Origin: a virus
Taxonomy: Duplodnaviria; Caudoviricetes
Reading direction: 5' to 3' (one strand)
DNA: 62,215 nucleotides
IMG/VR virus record: IMGVR_UViG_3300044844_001006
Span: 1 to 62,215 of that record
In this document: positions 3,323 to 39,535 of the stretch, in pieces
How positions within the stretch are numbered: the stretch's first letter is position 1
How the letters are laid out: each line of letters begins with the position of its first letter
Position numbers and translations under genes: made by a program
Notes under the pieces: generated by a model
Seen by the model: only the letters and a program-made list of their open reading frames with translations
The model's database searches: none
What the model was told of the DNA's origin: nothing

Positions 3323-6300
3323 TCAGAACATCCGCGCTGTCGTCTTCGCCAGCTTCAGGCCGGAACCGTCCCCGCGCACCCCGACCGACACGTTCCACGC
3401 TTTGCGCCTCAGCTCGGCTACTTCTTGGCTCAGGTTTCCAACCGCGAGGGCCAGATGGGCTACTGCCGGATCGGACCCACCACGCAGTACGCCAGCACCG
3501 CCGCCGAGGGCCCCGGACTCCTTCAGGCGGCTGGTGATAGCAGCAGGGATCACCGTGCCCTTGGAGGGGGGCGTCCATAGGCTGTTGGCGGGCCGGTTGA
3601 TCAGGGACAGAGCGCCAGATGCTGACAGGAACGCCTCCTGCCCCAAGCTCATCCCGCTGGGGCCGTCGTTGATGCGGTACGTCTGGCCAGCATCCACAGG
3701 GCCACCCGTGAAGCGGGCAGGGGGGAGGCCGGCGGCAGAGGCGAGGGAGAGGTAGAACCTCTCAGCAGCGTTGGCCGCATTGCCCATGTTGGTGCTAAGC
3801 CCTGCCGCCTGGCCCTTAGCTGCAGCGGTGGCTTTGGATGCCACGCCCATGAAGTCCTTGATGTCGTTCGCAGCGGGCCCCACCCCCTTACCCAGAGCCT
3901 GTCCGATCTCGTAGTAGCCCTTGCCGGTATCCCGCACCCGGAGACCCACATCCCGCGCCAACTGGGCAAAGGCGCTCTGCTGGGCAAGCGGCACCTTCAG
4001 GCTGTCACCCACGCTCTTGAACTGGTCGGCGGTGCCTTTGGCAGCCTTGAAGGTGCCATCTGCGGCGAGCTGTAGGCCCTTTGCCTCGGCGGCAGCAAGG
4101 GCCCTATAGATCGCTTCCTCGTTGGTGGCATCAGCGATCCTGCCCTGTATGGGCTGGATTTGCTGAAGGATCCCCAGGTTTTCATTGGCAATCTGCCTGT
4201 CAATATCCTTGATTTCTAGGTTTGCCTTTGCCGAGGCTTCCGCTTCTTTGTTGCTTTCGTTGATTGCTTTTGTTACCTCAAGCTCTGCTTTTTTGTACTC
4301 TGCATTTGCTTTCCTTACCTCACTGTTTGCCTCTGTAAGTGCCTGTTGCTGCTTCAATGCCAGCAGATCTCTTTCTAGTCCCTGCTGTGCTACTAATCCT
4401 TGAAACTTGGCGCTCATGGCGGCAGCTTCTATCTCTTCACCTCGGCGCTTAATTTCATCCAGCTCTCGTTCGCTTGCCTTACGCTCTTGAGCATCTTTTA
4501 GCTCAAAGTCGTTGCGGCTTTTGATGATACCAAAGCGGGAATCCTCTAGGCTGATCAATGCCTGGCCAAGATTGATGCTGGCCTGCTGTACGGAAACAAG
4601 CGAGTCGCTCTGTGCTTTGCTGAGCTTGTCCTTTGCAGCGCTAAGGGAAATTGTATTATCAACCTCAATCAGTCCTAGCCTGTTTTGCTCTTTTTGAGTA
4701 TCAAGTAAATCCTGTGCAATCTTTTTGGTGTCTCCTTTGGCCTGATTAACTTTGCCAGTGTTTTCAACCTGCTTAGTTGTCTCAATGTTTAGTATCTTAT
4801 TGAGTTCTAGAGTCTCTACCAGTCTTTGCTGAAACTCTTGGCTTGCCTTTCTGGCACCATCGTTTCCCGTGGCTCCTGCGGCACCGGAAAAAACACTAGC
4901 CCAAACCAGCTTAAGACTTTGAGAGGCTTTATCTAGTAATCCGACTTTCTGGGTGAGGTCAACAACGGCATTAGCCGTGTTAGTAATAGGTGCAACATTT
5001 ACCTGTGCCGCTTTGTTTATGGTAGGTGCAACGTCTTTGTTGAACTTCGCCGACAGATCTATGAGCTTAGCGAGCTTATCGAGATACGAGGCGACTTCGG
5101 GTAGAGACTGACCAACCGTTGTAGCTAAGTTGCTAGTTGCATTTTGAATCTTTTTAATGCCGCCTTCTATTGTGCTGGTTGCCACTTCACTTGCCTTAGC
5201 TGCAGCACCGGCACTGCTAACTTGGTTATCAAGTAGTTGGTTGTACGATTTTAGTCCATCATTCAGCAATGGCTGTACGGCAGCCTGCGCTTCAACCGAC
5301 CCGAGCAAGATAGCCAGCTTGTCAGCCGCTCCTCCTCCCTTAGCCTGTACATCTGCAAGGAAACCACCAAAGCCACGGGCCTGTAGTCCCGCTAGGTCAA
5401 AGCTAATTCCCAGGCTCGCCGCTAGGTCTTTTGCCTGCTCGCTTGGCTTGAGGATCGAGCTAATCGCCTGACGGATCCCGGTAAATGATTGAGCTACCGG
5501 GACTCCTTTCAAGGTTGCTGTAGCAATGGCAGCATTCAACTCCGAGATCGGAATACCAGCGGCAGCAGCAACAGATGCCACCGTGCCGATCTGCTCGGCA
5601 TACTCCCGAACCGTGATAACACCGTCGGCTTGGGTTTGCACAAAGCCGTCTACGATGCTCGTAGCATCAGCCGTGGTTAGCCCGTATGCGTTGATAACTC
5701 CGGTAACGGCCTTAGTTACGTCGTTCAGCTCGGCGAAGCCACCTGATGCCCCCAGTGATGAAGCCCTAAGGATGTCCGTGATCTGTGCAGTAGTCGTAAA
5801 GCCGCTGGAAGCAACATCATAGGAGGCCTTTAATAGCTCAACTCGGCTTACATTGCTATCAAGCTCAATCGAAAGGTCGAACAGTTTATCCTTAAGATCA
5901 CTTGAGTTGATACCTAGCGTCCTTACTGCCGCTCCCGCTGAATCAAGCTCTGTAATTTGCTTGCCGACAAACTGAAGCGCTGAGCCAGCCGAGAGAACGG
6001 CCCCAGCCTGCAGGGCAAAGCCCTTAAGCTCTTGCCCTAATCCCTTGATGATGCCGCCGCCGCCACCTAACGCTTTGTCTACTTCCTTTTGTGTTTGCGC
6101 TATCTGCCTTTGAGCCGCAACGAACTCTTTTGATCCGATGGCGGCTTTGTTCAGGGTTTGATCTAGCTCACTAAGCCTGGTCTTGAGACCCCCCAGTGTA
6201 GTGACGCTTGAACCAACGCCCTTATCCAGCTCTTTTAGTTGCCCGCGCAGCCGCTCCAGCAGCTTGTCGTTGGCGGCAAAGCCCTGTTGAAACTCCTGCC

Positions 6301-6394
6301 CCGCCTGCTTCCCCGCCTGCCCGATCTGCCGCGAGGCATCGAGCACACCCTTTACATCGGCGGTGACTTTAACGACCCACTCGTTGCCTGCCAT
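3323..6394 (-). CDS. Tail tape measure protein (TP901-like core)
   Basis: 1023 aa, Ala/Gly/Gln-rich and helical, with core motifs such as ASYDVASSGF, EYAEQIGTVASVAAAAGI, ISSILKPSEQA and a C-terminal RFTGGPVDAGQTYRIN motif. Confidence 0.92.
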   Translation of the reverse strand: MAGNEWVVKVTADVKGVLDASRQIGQAGKQAGQEFQQGFAANDKLLERLRGQLKELDKGVGSSVTTLGGLKTRLSELDQTLNKAAIGSKEFVAAQRQIAQTQKEVDKALGGGGGIIKGLGQELKGFALQAGAVLSAGSALQFVGKQITELDSAGAAVRTLGINSSDLKDKLFDLSIELDSNVSRVELLKASYDVASSGFTTTAQITDILRASSLGASGGFAELNDVTKAVTGVINAYGLTTADATSIVDGFVQTQADGVITVREYAEQIGTVASVAAAAGIPISELNAAIATATLKGVPVAQSFTGIRQAISSILKPSEQAKDLAASLGISFDLAGLQARGFGGFLADVQAKGGGAADKLAILLGSVEAQAAVQPLLNDGLKSYNQLLDNQVSSAGAAAKASEVATSTIEGGIKKIQNATSNLATTVGQSLPEVASYLDKLAKLIDLSAKFNKDVAPTINKAAQVNVAPITNTANAVVDLTQKVGLLDKASQSLKLVWASVFSGAAGATGNDGARKASQEFQQRLVETLELNKILNIETTKQVENTGKVNQAKGDTKKIAQDLLDTQKEQNRLGLIEVDNTISLSAAKDKLSKAQSDSLVSVQQASINLGQALISLEDSRFGIIKSRNDFELKDAQERKASERELDEIKRRGEEIEAAAMSAKFQGLVAQQGLERDLLALKQQQALTEANSEVRKANAEYKKAELEVTKAINESNKEAEASAKANLEIKDIDRQIANENLGILQQIQPIQGRIADATNEEAIYRALAAAEAKGLQLAADGTFKAAKGTADQFKSVGDSLKVPLAQQSAFAQLARDVGLRVRDTGKGYYEIGQALGKGVGPAANDIKDFMGVASKATAAAKGQAAGLSTNMGNAANAAERFYLSLASAAGLPPARFTGGPVDAGQTYRINDGPSGMSLGQEAFLSASGALSLINRPANSLWTPPSKGTVIPAAITSRLKESGALGGGAGVLRGGSDPAVAHLALAVGNLSQEVAELRRKAWNVSVGVRGDGSGLKLAKTTARMF

Positions 6395-6395
6395 G

Positions 6396-7100
6396 TCAGC
6401 TCTCCGGTGTCACGACGTACTGGGTGGGGTTGGTCCAGCTGATGGCGTACTGATCCAGCACCCCGAGCCCCTGCCCCGGCGCATCACCGCCGATCGGCAC
6501 CGCACGGCACCCCGGCAAGAGGCTGATGATCCGCTGCGTCAACGCCTGCAGGGCCGTCAGATCAACTGCGGGTGAAGGCACCACCACACCAGCAGCCACG
6601 GCAGCCGAGGCGATGGTGCTGCCAGCTAGGGCATAGCTGAGGGTGAACGGTGCGGTCGTAGTCGCAGCGGTGACCGTGAAGGTGCCATTCAGGGCAGCGA
6701 AGGGGGCAGGGAGAGCGCTCACCGCTACCTGCTTGCCCACGCCGAAGCCATGGGCCGCCGCGAAGGTGAGCGTGGCCGTGCCTGATGCAAGGGCGGCATT
6801 GGTAATCGCCTGCGGGGCCACCTGCAGGGCAGACCACTCGCTCACGTACAGCCGGAACTGTGGGTTCAGACCCGTCTCCCCGGTAAGCATCGCCTCGGGG
6901 CTGTAGTCGGGGTTGTTGAGGATCACCACCTCCAGGCCAGCCACGGCCACCCCCTCGGGCAACTGCTCATTGCGGCGCACCACGGCGATGGCAGGGATTG
7001 CCGTACCGCCCCGTGGGGTGTAGCTGCCCAACGCGGGGGCCACTACGGCATCAGTCGCCAGCAGGTCGTACAGCTCCTGTGCAGTGGCGGGAAGGCTCAT
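6396..7100 (-). CDS. Putative tail terminator/completion protein with an inserted beta-rich domain
   Basis: 234 aa, immediately upstream of the tape measure gene. Its internal ATLTFAAAHG...NGTFTVTA domain is shared with 10601-11434 and 56864-57553. Confidence 0.55.
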   Translation of the reverse strand: MSLPATAQELYDLLATDAVVAPALGSYTPRGGTAIPAIAVVRRNEQLPEGVAVAGLEVVILNNPDYSPEAMLTGETGLNPQFRLYVSEWSALQVAPQAITNAALASGTATLTFAAAHGFGVGKQVAVSALPAPFAALNGTFTVTAATTTAPFTLSYALAGSTIASAAVAAGVVVPSPAVDLTALQALTQRIISLLPGCRAVPIGGDAPGQGLGVLDQYAISWTNPTQYVVTPES

Positions 7101-7149
7101 GCCTCAGCTTTCCCTGCAAGTGGGCCGATCTGGGAGCCGGGTGGCGTTG

Positions 7150-7190
7150 CGCTTCCCAAACGGCTTACAGATGGGGTAGTATTGAAAAGT
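7150..7190 (+). promoter_or_regulatory. Candidate promoter/operator for repeat-RAMP locus A
   Basis: TAGTAT -10-like hexamer just before the first repeat tract. It is preceded by an ACGGCTTA motif also found upstream of locus B. Confidence 0.45.
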
Positions 7191-7193
7191 CAG

Positions 7194-7525
7194 TGCATCG
7201 CCGCGCTCTGCCCCGCATCGCGACGCCGCGCCTCGCTCCGCATTGGGGCCCTTCGGGGCCCACAACTCACCACTGAGCCATTTGGCTTTCTGGTGGGCTG
7301 ACGCCTACCACGCCGCCACCCGGCGCATCGCTAAGCGAAGCCTCGCCTCGCGCAGCCTTGCAACGGCCCCGGCTTCGGCTGGGGCACAACCCATCACAGA
7401 GCTTCATGTTCTCTGGTGGGCTGATAGCTCACCACTCCGCATTGCTGCGCAGATCGCCGTGCAGCGCCGCTGCGCCTCGCCTAGCGAAGCCACGCAAACC
7501 GCAGGGGCCTTGTTATCAGGGCCCA
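7194..7525 (+). ncRNA. Array A-left: three units of (Y/A)GC-NN pentamer tracts separated by conserved hairpins (candidate guide RNAs)
   Basis: Tracts at 7194-7243 (10 pentamers), 7309-7363 (11) and 7433-7502 (14). Each is followed by a GC-rich hairpin, and units 2 and 3 are preceded by a hairpin ending CTGGTGGGCTGA. Confidence 0.8.
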
Positions 7526-7552
7526 CTCAACCATCCTAAGAGGATTCAATCA

Positions 7553-8182
7553 ATGGCATTTCGCCGCTTTGAGCTAACGCTTGAGGGCACACGCCCGCTC
7601 ATTTGCAGTAACCCCTGCACAGTTGATCCACTAGGCCCCCACGCCGAAGCGATCAAGTATTTCACCGGCCTCAAAAAGAACCGCAATGAACACGCCCTGA
7701 GGCGGCTGCATTGGTTGTTCTCCGGCTACTGGGGAACCGAAGGCACATTCACCTACGGGCCCAGCTTGGATGGTGATTCCAAGTTTAGTGGCTTTGCTGA
7801 GCCATTCCTGCCTGCTCAGAACCTGCAGCGTTGCATCCGCGATGGTGCCACGGCGTGGAAGCTGGGCAAGGACACCAAGCGGGCAATCGTTGTCGAGGGT
7901 GATGCACCGCTCGCTTACGACGGCCCCACCGATGCCGAGCTGATGTACGACGACCCGCGCTTTGCCTCAATCGCTCCCACAGGAAGGGGCACCATGGCAG
8001 TGCGGGTAAGGCTGCCCCAGTGGAGCGCTACCTACCGGCTCCTGGTGAATGACGAGATCATTGATCCCACCACGCTGGCAAAGATCCTAGATCGTGCTGG
8101 CATTGCCGAAGGCCTCGGCACCTGGCGCCCCATGCACGGTCGCTTTCAGGTAGTACAGCTCGAAGAGATTGAGGTGGCCTGA
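7553..8182 (+). CDS. RAMP/Cas7-like protein A (209 aa)
   Basis: N-terminal strand FELTLEGTRPLI, central FLPAQNLQRCIRDGA and C-terminal glycine-rich loop GIAEGLGTWRPMHGRFQV match RAMP-superfamily motif order. ATG 7553 follows an AAGAGG Shine-Dalgarno-like site. Confidence 0.72.
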   Translation: MAFRRFELTLEGTRPLICSNPCTVDPLGPHAEAIKYFTGLKKNRNEHALRRLHWLFSGYWGTEGTFTYGPSLDGDSKFSGFAEPFLPAQNLQRCIRDGATAWKLGKDTKRAIVVEGDAPLAYDGPTDAELMYDDPRFASIAPTGRGTMAVRVRLPQWSATYRLLVNDEIIDPTTLAKILDRAGIAEGLGTWRPMHGRFQVVQLEEIEVA

Positions 8183-8697
8183 TGAATGACCCCAAGATTG
8201 CCTCAATCGACGCTTACCACCTTTACAAGGGCCAGACCATTTCGGCCGATGTTGTGTGGGAGCACTTCGCAAATCGGCGACCCGACACCGTGGCCAGTTG
8301 GGTCATGGAGCACGGGGACGAGGCGCTGGCTAGGGCTGCTCGAATGCCTCAGGTTCTGCTTCAGGTTCGTGGCTGGCTTGACCGTGATCGCAGCAAAGCG
8401 GAGCTTCCGCCGCTGGTGATGAACACGGCAGGTGGCGGCATCAACGTGCTCACCGATGACAAGGCCTCAACCTACCTGAACGATCAGGCGTTCCAAGGGT
8501 TGCGCCGCCATCAGCGGGCATCCACTCGGCTTGTTGCCGCCGTAGATGAATCCAAGCTGACCGGTGCCGCACGTCGAGAGCATCAGAACCGGATCAACGT
8601 GCATAGCTTCATTGCTGCATCCGCTCAGGGCGCCCAGCGCCAGCTCAGGCTCCTGAGGCAGAACGGGAAGAAGGCACCGAAGCTGGAGGGGGGCTGA
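8182..8697 (+). CDS. Hypothetical protein, accessory gene of locus A
   Basis: 171 aa, TGATG-coupled to the RAMP-like gene and enclosed by the arrays. Confidence 0.8.
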   Translation: MNDPKIASIDAYHLYKGQTISADVVWEHFANRRPDTVASWVMEHGDEALARAARMPQVLLQVRGWLDRDRSKAELPPLVMNTAGGGINVLTDDKASTYLNDQAFQGLRRHQRASTRLVAAVDESKLTGAARREHQNRINVHSFIAASAQGAQRQLRLLRQNGKKAPKLEGG

Positions 8698-8855
8698 TGT
8701 GGGATCCAGCTGATTTGATCTTGCGACTTCTTGGCGGGGAGTCCCTTAGCCGCAGGCAAAAGGCGTGCATTCGGCAGCACTTGCAGCGTGTTGTCGGCCG
8801 TTTTTCACCCAGCGAATCCGCAGCAGCGGAAGCGCTGGGCCTGGCGGACATCTAA
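8697..8855 (+). CDS. Small hypothetical protein (52 aa, MWDPADLILRLLGGE...)
   Basis: TGATG-coupled to the previous gene and hand translated. Confidence 0.5.
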   Translation: MWDPADLILRLLGGESLSRRQKACIRQHLQRVVGRFSPSESAAAEALGLADI

Positions 8856-8887
8856 TGACCTGGGCATCCGCAAGGTGTAAGCCCTAG

Positions 8888-9222
8888 AACTGCGCCGCTC
8901 GCTACGTCGCCTTTCACCGCCGCCCCGCTCTACGCGCCGCACCGCACAGGGGGTCTCATGCGAGGCCCCACACCTCACCGCTAAGCCCCCTGGCTCTCCG
9001 GTGGGCTGACGCCTACCACGACGCGACACCACCCAGCGCCGCTCGACGCAACGCAACGCGCCGCACCGCACAGGGGGCCCAGTAATGGGCCTCACACCTC
9101 ACCGCTGAGCCATTGGTTCTCCGGTGGGCTGATGCCTACCACTGCTCCCTGCGCCGCGTTGCAAAACAGCGCTCCGCTTCGCATCGCACCGCACCGCACA
9201 GGGGCCCCTTTTTGGGGCCCAC
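8888..9222 (+). ncRNA. Array A-right: three units of CNC/YGC-NN pentamer tracts with the same hairpin scaffold
   Basis: Tracts at 8888-8947, 9017-9071 and 9140-9199 all end CGCAC CGCAC AGGGG plus a hairpin. The linker CACACCTCACCGCTRAGCC...CTCCGGTGGGCTGAYGCCTACCAC is repeated. Confidence 0.82.
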
Positions 9223-9254
9223 CCCAATCATTCACAGACACCCCCGAACACACC

Positions 9255-9566
9255 ATGAAAACCTTCTCAGTTACATTCAGCCTTACTCTTGATGTTACCT
9301 GCGCAGATCATTTAGATACTGATTGGGTAGCAAAGCAATTCGCCTACAAAAGTGATAGGTTTTCTACCCTTTGTATTGCAGGCGATCCTGAGGGCGAGAT
9401 TGCAATACAGGCTGCATCATCCGGCATAGAGAGTATTCGAAGGTATGATAGCCCAAAGGTATCGGCGACTCCCAAATCCGAGGCTCCCGCATTTCCTGCC
9501 CGTACCGGAAACCGCATTACTGACATGCTTTCTAATCCAGCCATTAGAAAGATGATTGGGTACTAG
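9255..9566 (+). CDS. Hypothetical protein (MKTFSVTFSLTLDV...)
   Basis: ATG after a C/A-rich leader. AT-richer than the genome average. Confidence 0.65.
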   Translation: MKTFSVTFSLTLDVTCADHLDTDWVAKQFAYKSDRFSTLCIAGDPEGEIAIQAASSGIESIRRYDSPKVSATPKSEAPAFPARTGNRITDMLSNPAIRKMIGY

Positions 9567-10600: not shown

Positions 10601-11434
10601 TCAGAGCAGATCGAGGCCGACCTTGCCGTAACCGGCCAGGCTCACCTGGAACTTGATCACCGTGCCAGCAGTCTGCTCAGGCTGGTAGCTCTCAAAGAAG
10701 CCATAGCCGTACTCCACCTGCTTCCCGTTGTTCGGGCCGATGACGGCGTACTCAACCATCAGCTTCTCGCTCACGTTGAACTCTTCACAGATCCGCATGG
10801 CACGCCACGCAGGGTCGGCGAAGTTCATCGCCCCGCTGATGCTCCAGGTCTTGTCCCTGGCGGTAGGAATCGGGGTGTTGTAGCTGCCCGCCTCGTCGTC
10901 GTAGGTGGTGACCGATTCCTTGGTGGTGCTGTTGCTGGGCTGGATATTGGTCAGACCCAGCAGGCGGAACGGGGGGTCGGTGCCGTCGAGCAGGAGTGAG
11001 GGGGCCACCACACCAGCAGATACGGAAGCAGTGGTGATCGCCGAGCCGGTCAGGGCATAGGTCAGGGTGTGCGGCGATGTGGTTGTAACCGCCGTCACCA
11101 CGAACGAACCGTTGATGGTGGCGAACGGAGCAGGAAGATCCTTCACCACGATCCGCTTGCCCACCGTGATGCCATGGGCATCAGCAAAGGTCAGGGTTGC
11201 GGTGGTGGTGGTACTGACCGCATTGGTAACCGCCTTGGTGCCGACACCGAATGCAAAGGTATCGCCGGTTCCAGCCGTGATGATCTGGGCGGTGGAGCTT
11301 TGCAGGGTGGTGTTGTCGATGAACTTGCCGGTGCCAAGCCCGCCGAGGTTGACGCGGGTAAGGTCAACCGCTGAAGCCTTGAGAGGGGTGAAGAAAAACT
11401 TGAACCCGTAGGCCTGTTCCCACACTTGGGGCAT
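10601..11434 (-). CDS. Major tail tube protein with an inserted beta domain
   Basis: ESVTTYDDEAG...KTWSISG...GYGFFESY...IKFQVSLAGYG fits a tail-tube pattern. Neighbours the tail chaperone. Confidence 0.75.
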   Translation of the reverse strand: MPQVWEQAYGFKFFFTPLKASAVDLTRVNLGGLGTGKFIDNTTLQSSTAQIITAGTGDTFAFGVGTKAVTNAVSTTTTATLTFADAHGITVGKRIVVKDLPAPFATINGSFVVTAVTTTSPHTLTYALTGSAITTASVSAGVVAPSLLLDGTDPPFRLLGLTNIQPSNSTTKESVTTYDDEAGSYNTPIPTARDKTWSISGAMNFADPAWRAMRICEEFNVSEKLMVEYAVIGPNNGKQVEYGYGFFESYQPEQTAGTVIKFQVSLAGYGKVGLDLL

Positions 11435-35201: not shown

Positions 35202-36704
35202 TCATGCTGCGTTGGCCCTCATGTAGCGCGCCATCCGCGAGGTGCTGCCGTTTGGCGCGGGTTCAGCAGCCTTGCGGCGGGGCTTCTTCTTGGCCAGCTG
35301 CTCCGGCAGCACCTGCCCCTTGATCCGTGCATAGCGGGCATTCACGGCAGCCCACACCTCCTCATCCAGGAACTCGAAATGCACCGTGCCTTTTTTGTAG
35401 GCGCGGAAGCGGAAGAATCCCCACTCGTACCACTCGCCTGGCCAGAAGATCCCGTCACCGGAAGGCTTCTCAGGTTGGGCCACCTCGTCGTAACTGCGAC
35501 CAGTGATAAAGCAGAGCGCTTTGATTAGGTCGCGGATCTCGTCGCTCTGGCTGCCGTAGGTCTTGAGGTTGACGCCACGGTTGTTGTAGGACAGCTCCGC
35601 CATGTAGGCGCGGATGAAGCGGCGGTTCAGCATGTAGCCGCTGTTCGTGACCCAGCCCTCCACGCCCCAGCGGTTCTCCTTTGTGTGCTTGGTGAGGCTG
35701 TCGATCGCCTGCTCTACGGCACGGTCTACCCGCTGCTCCTGCGTCCCCGCCACGATCTGGAGCATCCGGTAGATGTTCCGCTCGGTGAAGGGGATCTTGG
35801 ACTGCTCCTCCACAAAGGCGTTGATTTCCTTCTGCAGGTTGCTGGTCGCCATCTGCGCGGGCAGAAACGCGGCAAACACGTGCTTCCATGCCGCCTTCTG
35901 CAGGTCCTTGCGAAAGCGGTTGCGGGTGACCGGGGCCCCCTCGACCGTGACCTGCAGGCCAAGCTCCCCACCAAAGAACCCGTCGAGCACGCTGCGCAGG
36001 CGCACCCCGGCTTCTACCTGCTCGTCGAAGATGCGACAGGCCTCCACGTAGCGCTTCACAATGTCGCGGCTGCGGCGGTAAGGGATCAACCCCTCGCCTT
36101 GGGCCTCGATGTCGTCAGGCCCGAGGAAGAACCCATCGAACTCATCAGCGGTGCTTACACGTTGCCCCGGCACCGGCTTGCGAAGGCGCACCATGCCGAC
36201 ACTCACCCGCGTGGGGCGCTCGGCGGTAGTGAAGCATTCGCCTAGGCACTCGCTGCTGCCGTAAGCCTCCACCAGGGTAGCTAACTGCAACTGCAAGCGG
36301 CGGTAGCGGCCTTCGCAGGTGTTCCAGTTGCATAGGGCCACGATCTCGCAGCCGGGCGGGGCGATCTCCCAGGCGTGCAAGATGTGGGCCTCGTCCGCCG
36401 AGAAGGGCGGGTTCATCACGATCAGATCAATGTGCGACACATCGGCGGCTTGGACTTGCAGGAAGTCTTCATGCAGACAACCGCCAAGGTGATGGCCTGG
36501 AATGCCATTCACGATTGAACGCAGCTGCGGCTCTTTCTCGCACCACAGCACCTCAGCAGCGCCACGGTTGAGGCACTCGCGGATCAGGTTGCCACTACCG
36601 GCGCTGGGTTCGAGGATCGTCTTGCCCCGTAGGTCGAGGCAATCGAGCATGGTGGCCGCTACTTCGGGCGGGGTGGGGTAAAAGTCAGAAGAAAATAAAC
36701 TCAT
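35202..36704 (-). CDS. SAM-dependent DNA methyltransferase with a DUF4942-like C terminus
   Basis: DFYPTP, ILEPSAGSG and MNPPF motifs, with C-terminal FFRFRAYKKGTVHFEF. Confidence 0.85.
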   Translation of the reverse strand: MSLFSSDFYPTPPEVAATMLDCLDLRGKTILEPSAGSGNLIRECLNRGAAEVLWCEKEPQLRSIVNGIPGHHLGGCLHEDFLQVQAADVSHIDLIVMNPPFSADEAHILHAWEIAPPGCEIVALCNWNTCEGRYRRLQLQLATLVEAYGSSECLGECFTTAERPTRVSVGMVRLRKPVPGQRVSTADEFDGFFLGPDDIEAQGEGLIPYRRSRDIVKRYVEACRIFDEQVEAGVRLRSVLDGFFGGELGLQVTVEGAPVTRNRFRKDLQKAAWKHVFAAFLPAQMATSNLQKEINAFVEEQSKIPFTERNIYRMLQIVAGTQEQRVDRAVEQAIDSLTKHTKENRWGVEGWVTNSGYMLNRRFIRAYMAELSYNNRGVNLKTYGSQSDEIRDLIKALCFITGRSYDEVAQPEKPSGDGIFWPGEWYEWGFFRFRAYKKGTVHFEFLDEEVWAAVNARYARIKGQVLPEQLAKKKPRRKAAEPAPNGSTSRMARYMRANAA

Positions 36705-37969: not shown

Positions 37970-38617
37970 ATGGCAGCCACCACCAAGACCAAAACCCAAG
38001 CCCCCGAGGAGGCCATCAGCATCAAGGCGCCGGATTTCCGGTTCCTGGAGATCAACATCCGAGGCACCAGCCCCCTCGTGGTCAACCGCTTCTCGGCGAA
38101 AGCCATCGAGATGATGCGGGCCACGCAGGAGGCAGGTAGCGCCGCTAAGTCCAAAAAGACGCGGGAGCCGAAAGATTTCGATGCCCTGTTTGAGAACGCC
38201 AAACACGTCTCAAACGACGGCTGGGAAGGGATCCATGCTGCCGCCTTCCGCAATGGCGCCATCAGTGCCTGCAGGGCTGTTGGCTACAAGATGACCCACG
38301 CAAAGCTGGCGTTTTGCGTGCTGGCCGATGGCTTCGACCGCGTAGACGGTGCCCCGCTGGTGCGCATTTCCGAGGGAGAGGCTGAGCAGTGGGTGGCCCC
38401 AACCCGGAACGCTACAGGTGTAGTCGATCTGCGCTGCCGTCCGATGTACCGGGAATGGGCTGCCGTGTTGCGGATCCGTTACGACGCGGGGATGCTCAGC
38501 TCCAGCGATGTGGTGAACCTGATCAGCCGCGTAGGGCTCCAGGTCGGCATCGGCGAGGGGCGACCCGATAGCAAAGCCAGTGCAGGACTTGGGTTTGGCC
38601 TTTTTGAGATCACCTGA
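37970..38617 (+). CDS. RAMP/Cas7-like protein B (215 aa)
   Basis: LEINIRGTSPLVV, GIHAAAFRNGAISA, DLRCRPMYREW and glycine-rich loop GLQVGIGEGRP...GLGFGLFEI. Same motif layout as 7553-8182. Confidence 0.75.
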   Translation: MAATTKTKTQAPEEAISIKAPDFRFLEINIRGTSPLVVNRFSAKAIEMMRATQEAGSAAKSKKTREPKDFDALFENAKHVSNDGWEGIHAAAFRNGAISACRAVGYKMTHAKLAFCVLADGFDRVDGAPLVRISEGEAEQWVAPTRNATGVVDLRCRPMYREWAAVLRIRYDAGMLSSSDVVNLISRVGLQVGIGEGRPDSKASAGLGFGLFEIT

Positions 38618-38769
38618 TGAAAGACCCAACCGCCAATCAATTCGCCATAACTCTGCTGTTACTCCTGACAGCGTGGGCCGTGTGCTTCCTGTGGTTCAAT
38701 CCAACCGGCTGGACAGTTGCGTTTGTGCTGGTCGCTGTTGCATTTCGAGTGGCCCCACGGTTTTTATGA
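38617..38769 (+). CDS. Small two-helix membrane protein (50 aa)
   Basis: TGATG-coupled. MKDPTANQFAITLLLLLTAWAVCFLWFNPTGWTVAFVLVAVAFRVAPRFL, hand translated. Confidence 0.6.
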   Translation: MKDPTANQFAITLLLLLTAWAVCFLWFNPTGWTVAFVLVAVAFRVAPRFL

Positions 38770-39535
38770 CGCAGGCATGGCAGGCATGGTGCGGAAGGCG
38801 TGGCCGCGACTCGCAAGTGTTGGCGCGGCAGGCATGGCCCGGTCAGGTCGGAACGGCCAAGCCGGGAGGGCGTGGCAGGACAGGCATAGCAGGCATGGCT
38901 TCGGAAGGCACGGCCAGGCCAGCCCTGGCAGGCAAGGTGTGGCCACGGTGGAAGATCAGGCGCGGCTGGCTAGGTGTGGTCGGGCTAGAGCAAGGCACGG
39001 CTGGCAAGGCCTCCTGGGCACGAGCACGCGGGGCATGGCAGGCGAGGTAATGAGGGCATGGCTGGGTCTGGTGTGGCAGGGTGCTGCAGGCATGGCTAGG
39101 TGCGGAAGACAGGCTCGGCAGGCACGGCAGGCAAGGCGACGATGGGCCTGGAAGGCACGGCCAAGCAAGGCAGGCGTGGTAGCGACGGCAGGATCAGGCA
39201 TGGATTGGCAGGCACGGCGTGGCGAGATCAGGAGCGATCGAGGAACGGCAAGGGACGGCAGGCATGGCTGGCTAGGTGAGATCTGGCGTTACTTGGGCTG
39301 GCGAGGTGAGACGCGGCAGGCATGGCACGGTCTGGATGGGTAGGGACTGGCAGGCCTGGTAGGCAAGGCCTGGTGGTGTACGTCGTCGCAGGCACGGCGA
39401 GGGAGGCCCGGTGAGCATGGCGGGGCGAGGCGCCGCAGGCCTGGCTTGACGGCGTAAGGCACCGCACGATGCGGCTCGGCTGGCGTGTTGCGGTTGCCAA
39501 ATGGCAGCAGAATAGGGGTCCGAATGGGCCCCCCT
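38770..39535 (+). ncRNA. Array B: ~730 bp of GGY-NN pentamer repeats punctuated by GGCA/GGCT tetramers (candidate guide RNA array)
   Basis: For example GGCAT GGCTG GGTCT GGTGT GGCAG GGTGC. Recurrent GCAGGCATGG boundaries, ending in a GGGGTCC-GAAT-GGGCCCC hairpin. Confidence 0.82.

Follow-up and report, generated by a model that had tools for sequence, protein, structure and literature searches.

A predicted CGC/NN VIPR locus in a freshwater siphophage with a guide that spells the catalytic block of a serine recombinase

Results

Organisation of the phage cassette

The window, by which we mean the whole 62,215-base stretch of DNA that was analysed, is a complete virus record with a siphovirus-type genome. 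It encodes a portal and a large terminase (TerL) in addition to the tape measure and tail tube genes listed in Table 1. A plus-strand cassette sits between the tail genes and consists of array 1, a gene of 209 codons for a product here termed protein A, two coupled ORFs and array 2. In relatives, arrays are found at the same place as array 1. The 171-aa ORF behind vipr A has no match in Pfam, PHROG or the PDB. The promoter-like motif AGGTGTAAGCCC ahead of array 2 has a recurring form, AGGTGTAAG(C/T)CC, that precedes the first array tract in several loci (for example L020 at ~2990 and L025 at ~3870), which makes it a candidate promoter or processing signal.

Searches of the window with Rfam at gathering thresholds returned no family, and no tRNA or tmRNA gene was found in it; blastn of positions 7100-9300 against phage records gave no match. 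The region is found in freshwater and lake metagenomes, and none of the runs containing the 7100-9300 stretch is listed as an RNA run. Since TerL is 33-34% identical to the terminases of cyanobacterial siphoviruses, its nearest cultured relatives, the host of the phage may be a freshwater cyanobacterium. Elsewhere on the minus strand (35202-36704) the genome encodes a 500-aa protein with an N-terminal DNA methyltransferase-like region (phrog_32703, phrog_799).

Table 1. Coordinates of the genes, arrays and tracts of the cassette and of the second locus
Feature	Position	Strand	Remark
Tape measure gene	3323-6394	minus	
Array 1, three vrRNA-like units with a GC hairpin after each	7190-7552	+	upstream of vipr A, behind promoter-like TAGTAT
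Tract A1	7197-7241	+	array 1
Tract A2	7312-7361	+	array 1
Tract A3	7436-7495	+	array 1
vipr gene A, 209 aa, predicted Cas7-like RAMP	7553-8182	+	PDB, PHROG and model matches
171-aa ORF, translationally coupled to vipr A	8182-8697	+	in the position of a vap accessory gene
52-aa ORF	8697-8855	+	ORF reading
Promoter-like motif AGGTGTAAGCCC, recurring form AGGTGTAAG(C/T)CC	8873-8884	+	ahead of array 2
Array 2, three units	8891-9222	+	downstream of 52-aa ORF
Tract A4, 12 NN units	8891-8947	+	first 10 likely guide (8891-8937)
A4 tail: GC hairpin (8949-8969) and conserved linker, second predicted stem-loop ending in GGTGGGCTGACGCCTACCAC	8949-9019	+	covariation
Unit A5: tract 9020-9069 and tail	9020-9142	+	
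Unit A6: tract 9143-9197 and terminal hairpin GGGCCCC-TTTTT-GGGGCCC	9143-9222	+	ORF 9255-9566 next
Tail tube gene	10601-11434	minus	
Second predicted VIPR locus: vipr B (37970-38617), 50-aa hydrophobic ORF, GGY/NN-like units (38770-39470)	37970-39470	+	

Five-base tracts, fixed triplets and structured tails

All six tracts of the window are built from 9-12 five-base units and each is followed by a GC hairpin, behind which the non-terminal units carry a conserved linker of ~50 bases. With at most one mismatch allowed, the window contains 21 matches to CGCNNCGCNNCGCNNCGC where 2.4 would be expected; 17 of these matches fall within 7199-7485 and 8928-9197. The largest count in a shuffled sequence was 9, such that none of 100 shuffles reached 21, and the five-base periodicity is not a product of chance. 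Within the 63 units of the six tracts the triplet is CGC in 39, its third base is C in 62 and its second base is G in 51.

Triplet degeneracy is greatest in tract A4, which reads TG cgc CG ctc GC tac GT cgc CT ttc AC cgc CG ccc CG ctc TA cgc GC cgc AC cgc AC (8891-8947). The initial annotation had listed these dinucleotides and their reverse-complement decode exactly as they are read here. It had placed the tract at 8888-8947, of which the end stands while the first unit begins three bases later, at 8891. The fixed triplets of A4 all share the form Y-N-C (11 of 11) and are CGC in 6 of the 11.

The NN dinucleotides are hypervariable among close relatives, whose triplets are conserved, and 44 distinct guides result. 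Of 36 distinct units, 25 have AC as the NN nearest the hairpin and 29 have AC, AA or CA as the one preceding it. Because AC-type dinucleotides recur at the last two positions across distinct units, the two terminal AC units of A4 probably belong, in part, to a handle or scaffold, and the earlier suggestion to that effect is largely borne out. Guides resembling A3 in relatives (L005, 302-356) show changes at single units (CT to AT, CT to TT), a pattern that would suit guides following the allelic variation of one target.

An alignment of 23 linkers gives 15 predicted pairs, 7 of which show compensatory changes. In these linkers (8970-9019 of the window and others) a GGTGGG stretch is pairable either with an upstream CACCAC-like stretch or with a downstream CCTACC or CCCACC, and this downstream partner covaries between loci. 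The alternative pairing could represent a pseudoknot, a switch or an inter-unit processing site.

Protein A is a Vipr homologue

VIPR is a CRISPR-like gene silencer first described in 2026, in which a stand-alone Cas7-like RAMP assembles on a vrRNA made of 9-16 YNNGG units with one protomer per unit, burying the GGY triplet and presenting NN (10.64898/2026.04.26.720920, 10.64898/2026.04.26.720927). Pairing with the target is described as skipping one nucleotide between successive NN, mostly at the codon wobble position, and its outcome as the transcriptional silencing of competing phages and satellites; where a phage carries the VIPR, the natural targets described include satellites and prophages as well as rival VIPRs (10.64898/2026.04.26.720920).

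Protein A matches a single PDB sequence, 36pp_D, the 'SUSP1 Vipr protein' (E 1.4e-11, residues 88-205), with its G-loop GTWRP aligned to GDWRP. It also matches phrog_4652 (E 2.7e-26) and has 1555 homologues at E <= 0.001. An AlphaFold2 model based on 61 aligned homologues has a pLDDT of 96 and a pTM of 0.90. Foldseek with this model returned 32 PDB matches at E <= 0.001. Those listed are CRISPR effector-complex entries, led by a Cmr-beta chain and by Csm and type IV chains, and the top matches are Cmr4, Csm3 and other Cas7-family chains with TM scores of 0.45-0.54. Sequence and model together identify protein A as a Vipr homologue and a predicted stand-alone Cas7-type RAMP.

The vipr A gene is present in 27 related viral loci of differing genomic context, and nearly all of these have (NN+xGC)n tracts and a hairpin directly upstream of the gene. 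The nearest cultured Vipr, that of Gordonia phage Trine, is 34.5% identical to protein A, and no five-base array is present in the ~100 bases upstream of the Trine gene. We classify the locus of the window as a predicted VIPR system because its six tracts flank a gene whose product matches SUSP1 Vipr and models as a Cas7-type RAMP.

In two of the related loci the units upstream of vipr are of the form xTC/NN (CTC, TTC, ATC) with no conserved G (L023, 3760-3990; L024, 3700-3990), a repeat type that lies outside all classes named in the main texts of the VIPR papers. The Vipr proteins of these loci are 76-77% identical to protein A and share its G-loop GTWRP. They differ from it in the first strand (RPVVLDNCC against RPLICSNPC in protein A) and in the thumb (AGRTSRG against IAPTGRG).

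A second VIPR-like locus in the same genome

A further Vipr-like protein is encoded downstream (Table 1). This protein B has 215 residues and the G-loop GEGRP, matches phrog_4652 (E 2.9e-16), is related to protein A by BLASTP (E 1e-5) and aligns with PDB 36pp_D over the G-loop (E 0.034). The units that follow span ~700 bases with phase slips and are succeeded by a gene for a 188-aa protein of phrog_15946; relatives G001 and G002 have similar second arrays. One phage would thus carry two VIPR systems, one pairing CGC/NN units with GTWRP and the other GGY/NN units with GEGRP.

Guide A2 matches the tail gene of relatives with one base skipped

The nine leading NN of A2 (7312-7356), read with one base skipped between them, were searched for in the viral collection and match 15 contigs exactly (L065-L079). 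All 15 matches lie in codon phase at MSLPTTAQGIYDLLAG (AQGIYDLLA), at the start of a homologue of a tail gene, and the sites vary only at the skipped bases. The targeted tail gene adjoins the cassette and the site is near its N-terminus. To gauge the spacing, the 44 guides were compared with six complete clade genomes and the other loci at skips of 0, 1 and 2, together with 880 shuffles. A2 alone gave a perfect run of nine, at skip 1; skips 0 and 2 gave runs of 5 and 6, and no shuffle exceeded 7. The published one-base-skip rule is thereby shown to hold in this CGC/NN clade for at least one guide, because A2 matches the tail gene of rival phages exactly and in codon phase.

The phage's own allele of the site (7053-7082, minus strand) encodes AQELYDLLA and agrees with the guide at 16 of 20 positions, leaving two units mismatched. 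A2 would be aimed at rival relatives and spare its own genome, because the own allele mismatches two units and the relatives match exactly. Matching rivals while sparing self is also the behaviour published for VIPR. A2 is the one guide of the six in the window for which an exact target was demonstrated; A1 (9 units) and A3 (10 units) each have no exact match among the viral contigs.

Guide A4 decodes to the catalytic block of a serine recombinase

Reverse complemented, the A4 dinucleotides are GT GT GC TA CG CG GT AG AC GC CG CA. Taken as codon positions 1-2, the 12 units read V V A Y/* R R V S/R T A R Q/H, and the ten-unit target is GCN TAN CGN CGN GTN AGN ACN GCN CGN CAN, that is A-Y-R-R-V-S-T-A-R-Q. 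Pin-like serine recombinases of ~230 aa form a family in which AYRRVSTARQ is the catalytic block at the N-terminus. When 2,000,000 guides of 12 units were generated at random with the dinucleotide composition of the clade's other 43 guides, Y.RVST..Q appeared in two, in either orientation, and among the 44 real guides it appears in A4 alone. A chance origin of the decode is unlikely, even allowing for a few hundred equally recognisable motifs. In its real order A4 fits 11 of 12 residues of the recombinase family, against at most 7 of 12 for ten shuffles of it, and no other guide of the window rose above its own shuffles.

With 20 specified bases about one chance match is expected in collections of the size searched, so it is the position of a match that is telling and not the count. 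The codon-phased sites by which the initial annotation proposed to support its reading were found in part. The metagenome contigs gave a single exact match to the ten-unit pattern, in frame at MTRHLIAYRRVSTARQGASGLGLEGQ (contig L031), in an ORF that is broken by a stop after 38 codons. The 2.9 million viral contigs gave none, also with the serine unit left free, and the eight-unit pattern had four matches there, all out of frame or with stops, as expected by chance. The genomes of 185,579 species contained one exact ten-unit match, which contains a stop and is likewise due to chance.

The 73 homologues of the L031 ORF are a biased set, since a search that begins with shared words favours proteins similar to the query; 72 of them carry PF00239, and most are 220-240 aa long. 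The family is annotated 'DNA invertase Pin-like'. AYRRVSTARQ is present in 36 of the 73, which agrees with the active-site motif that had been read from the tract at the outset; two have VAYRRVSTARQ and would also fit the eleventh A4 unit. The family is encoded on ten viral contigs, where the best NN match is 17 of 20. The nearest named relatives of the subfamily are on bacterial plasmids, at no more than 47% identity, with phage records at no more than 32%; neither the plasmid nor the phage records contain a close relative of the AYRRVSTARQ subfamily.

One lake-water run, X3, contains 38% of the words of positions 7100-9300 of the window. The same run yielded a 226-base contig over the recombinase block with two differing letters, whose flanks (GTG-GAA-CTG before the block and E-S-G-L-G-L-E-A-Q after it) look like those of this recombinase family. 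Runs X1, X2 and X4 contained nothing covering L031:1-240. Since a database search with the NN string of a conserved motif is bound to return that motif, these matches show that the decode is natural and not that the site is the target.

The initial annotation had also held that the window encodes no serine recombinase and that the target would be foreign. PF00239 is indeed without a match in the window and in five complete relatives, and the five relatives have no A4 site with three or fewer mismatches.

Discussion

The closest described counterpart of the locus is the Type II VIPR of Escherichia phage SUSP1, which comprises Vipr, vap1 and vrRNAs (10.64898/2026.04.26.720920, 10.64898/2026.04.26.720927, 10.64898/2026.10.15.759431). 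Both have a lone protein of ~200 aa with a Cas7-like RAMP fold, predicted in our case, and vrRNAs in which 9-16 five-base units (triplet plus NN) precede a structured 3' tail. In both, arrays stand on either side of the genes and the target is read in codon phase with one base skipped. Both also have one guide directed towards the active-site strand of a serine recombinase, which for A4 is the probable target. [quoted passage not shown] 4 legend; in print on 16 Oct 2026).

The two systems differ in the fixed triplet, which is GGY in SUSP1 and mostly CGC in the window, and the SUSP1 residues that read G1, H17 and D177, align with S19 and T190 of protein A, where G1 is mostly C. They differ also in the tail, with a pseudoknot reported for the SUSP1 clade and a GC hairpin plus second stem-loop predicted here, and in the accessory gene, which is vap1 in SUSP1 and in the window a 171-aa gene in the position of a vap gene, without a detectable relative. 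The SUSP1 system was tested experimentally, whereas that of the window is known from sequence.

Non-canonical VIPR units have been described as NNNGG, YNNNG and NNNNG (10.64898/2026.04.26.720920, methods), and further as GAC/NN, CAC/NN, WGT/NN and TGH/NN (10.64898/2026.10.21.760802, section 2.3). Like the locus of the window, such non-canonical systems have a five-base period, a triplet other than GGY and an adjoining gene for a Vipr-like fold. The CGC/NN repeat fits the printed YNNNG class (10.64898/2026.04.26.720920). The main text of 10.64898/2026.10.21.760802 contains no 'CGC'; figure S10A of that paper, or the supplementary material published with the VIPR papers, may list CGC/NN or the clade. 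More distantly, protein A resembles the Cas7 backbone of Class 1 CRISPR systems (Csm3, Cmr4, Csf2) in its predicted RRM core, glycine-rich loop and thumb, and the two would share the binding of one protomer per guide repeat and the periodic flipping of bases. Unlike Class 1 CRISPR systems, the window has no CRISPR array, no cas1 or cas2 and no other cas genes, and VIPR hides three guide bases in each period of 5 nt, compared with one hidden base per 6 nt in Cas7-based CRISPR.

We consider it likely that A4 is a VIPR guide by which this freshwater siphophage silences the serine recombinase gene of another mobile element. Our claim to have established something extends to the spelling of A4, to the recombinase family that it spells and to the skip rule for A2; the targeted element we infer. 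By analogy with SUSP1, one protomer of protein A would bind each five-base unit, bury the fixed triplet (mostly CGC) and present NN, and the Vipr filament would pair with double-stranded DNA with every third base skipped and silence transcription. The first ten NN of A4 would in this way address the block of the gene that encodes the beta-strand and the catalytic serine, through positions 1-2 of its codons. A foreign target is expected because the window is without a serine recombinase, and the phage may direct the guide against the recombinase gene of a satellite, prophage or plasmid in its host. Silencing of the recombinase would block excision or resolution of the rival element. The invariant codons of the active site combined with the skipped wobble positions would leave the target little room for escape. 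A guide code that ignores wobble positions had been proposed in the initial annotation and is that of the published VIPR mechanism (10.64898/2026.04.26.720920), in keeping with the codon phase of all 15 A2 sites; the resistance to synonymous escape that was proposed with it is described as part of the same mechanism.

It is improbable, in our judgement, that A4 is a real VIPR guide with some other true target and that its likeness to a recombinase is a coincidence of scanning many decodes. The scanning was broad, in that six tracts were decoded in two orientations by a reader that knew many motifs. The viral contigs contain no exact A4 target, and the two exact matches in two large collections are about the number expected by chance, one of them plainly so. 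Set against this, the motif arose in two of 2,000,000 random guides of the same composition and shuffled A4 guides reached at most 7 compatible residues of 12 compared with 11 for the real order. Moreover, all ten guide units, and hence more than the six positions of the motif, agree with the consensus that a natural subfamily shows in 36 of 73 homologues. We give equally little credence to a target in the host's own serine recombinase, such as an invertase acting as the switch of a surface receptor or defence locus. The 'DNA invertase Pin-like' annotation of the matching family would suit such a target, as would the location of its nearest named relatives on bacterial plasmids (no more than 47% identity, compared with no more than 32% for phage records) and the absence of the exact site from the viral contigs searched. 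However, the family is encoded on ten viral contigs, the natural targets published for VIPRs on phages are rival VIPRs, satellites and prophages (10.64898/2026.04.26.720920), and the sister guide A2 is directed at rival phages.

A protein-binding leader resembling a TRAP binding site, which would regulate the downstream genes, is far less probable still. Runs of ~11 triplets with two-base spacers that stand directly upstream of genes and end in a hairpin do recall such leaders. Yet close relatives conserve the triplets and have hypervariable spacers, protein A is a Vipr homologue, and the spacers of one tract spell a gene of rival phages exactly (15 of 15). We dropped the TRAP-like leader on account of the match to SUSP1 Vipr and the A2 targets.

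The locus leaves the picture of what VIPR is unchanged. The noncontiguous code and the resistance to escape are already described, as is the targeting of a serine recombinase active site (10.64898/2026.10.15.759431). What is extended is the range of the code, which had been tested in the GGY/NN systems of E. coli and Pseudomonas only and here explains natural targets in an uncultured freshwater lineage with CGC/NN repeats. A4 would add a second, independent case of a guide towards the catalytic block of a serine recombinase and so support the published view that VIPR picks codons that the target cannot change.

The presence of CGC/NN and GGY/NN repeats in one genome, with close relatives that have shifted further to xTC/NN, provides a natural set for the study of how Vipr reads its triplet. 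Candidate residues for setting the triplet are S19 and T190 in protein A and H17 and D177 in SUSP1, and a possible yield of such work is orthogonal scaffolds for programmable silencing. We raise tentatively, and as a proposal that is rather doubtful at present, that silencing of the recombinase catalytic block is recurrent, having arisen independently in an E. coli myophage (GGY/NN) and a freshwater siphophage (CGC/NN), and that CGC/NN and GGY/NN Viprs are mutually orthogonal with the triplet set by a few residues. If true, a recurrent tactic of this kind would imply that undescribed integrative satellites or plasmids with Pin-like recombinases of ~230 aa parasitise freshwater phages.
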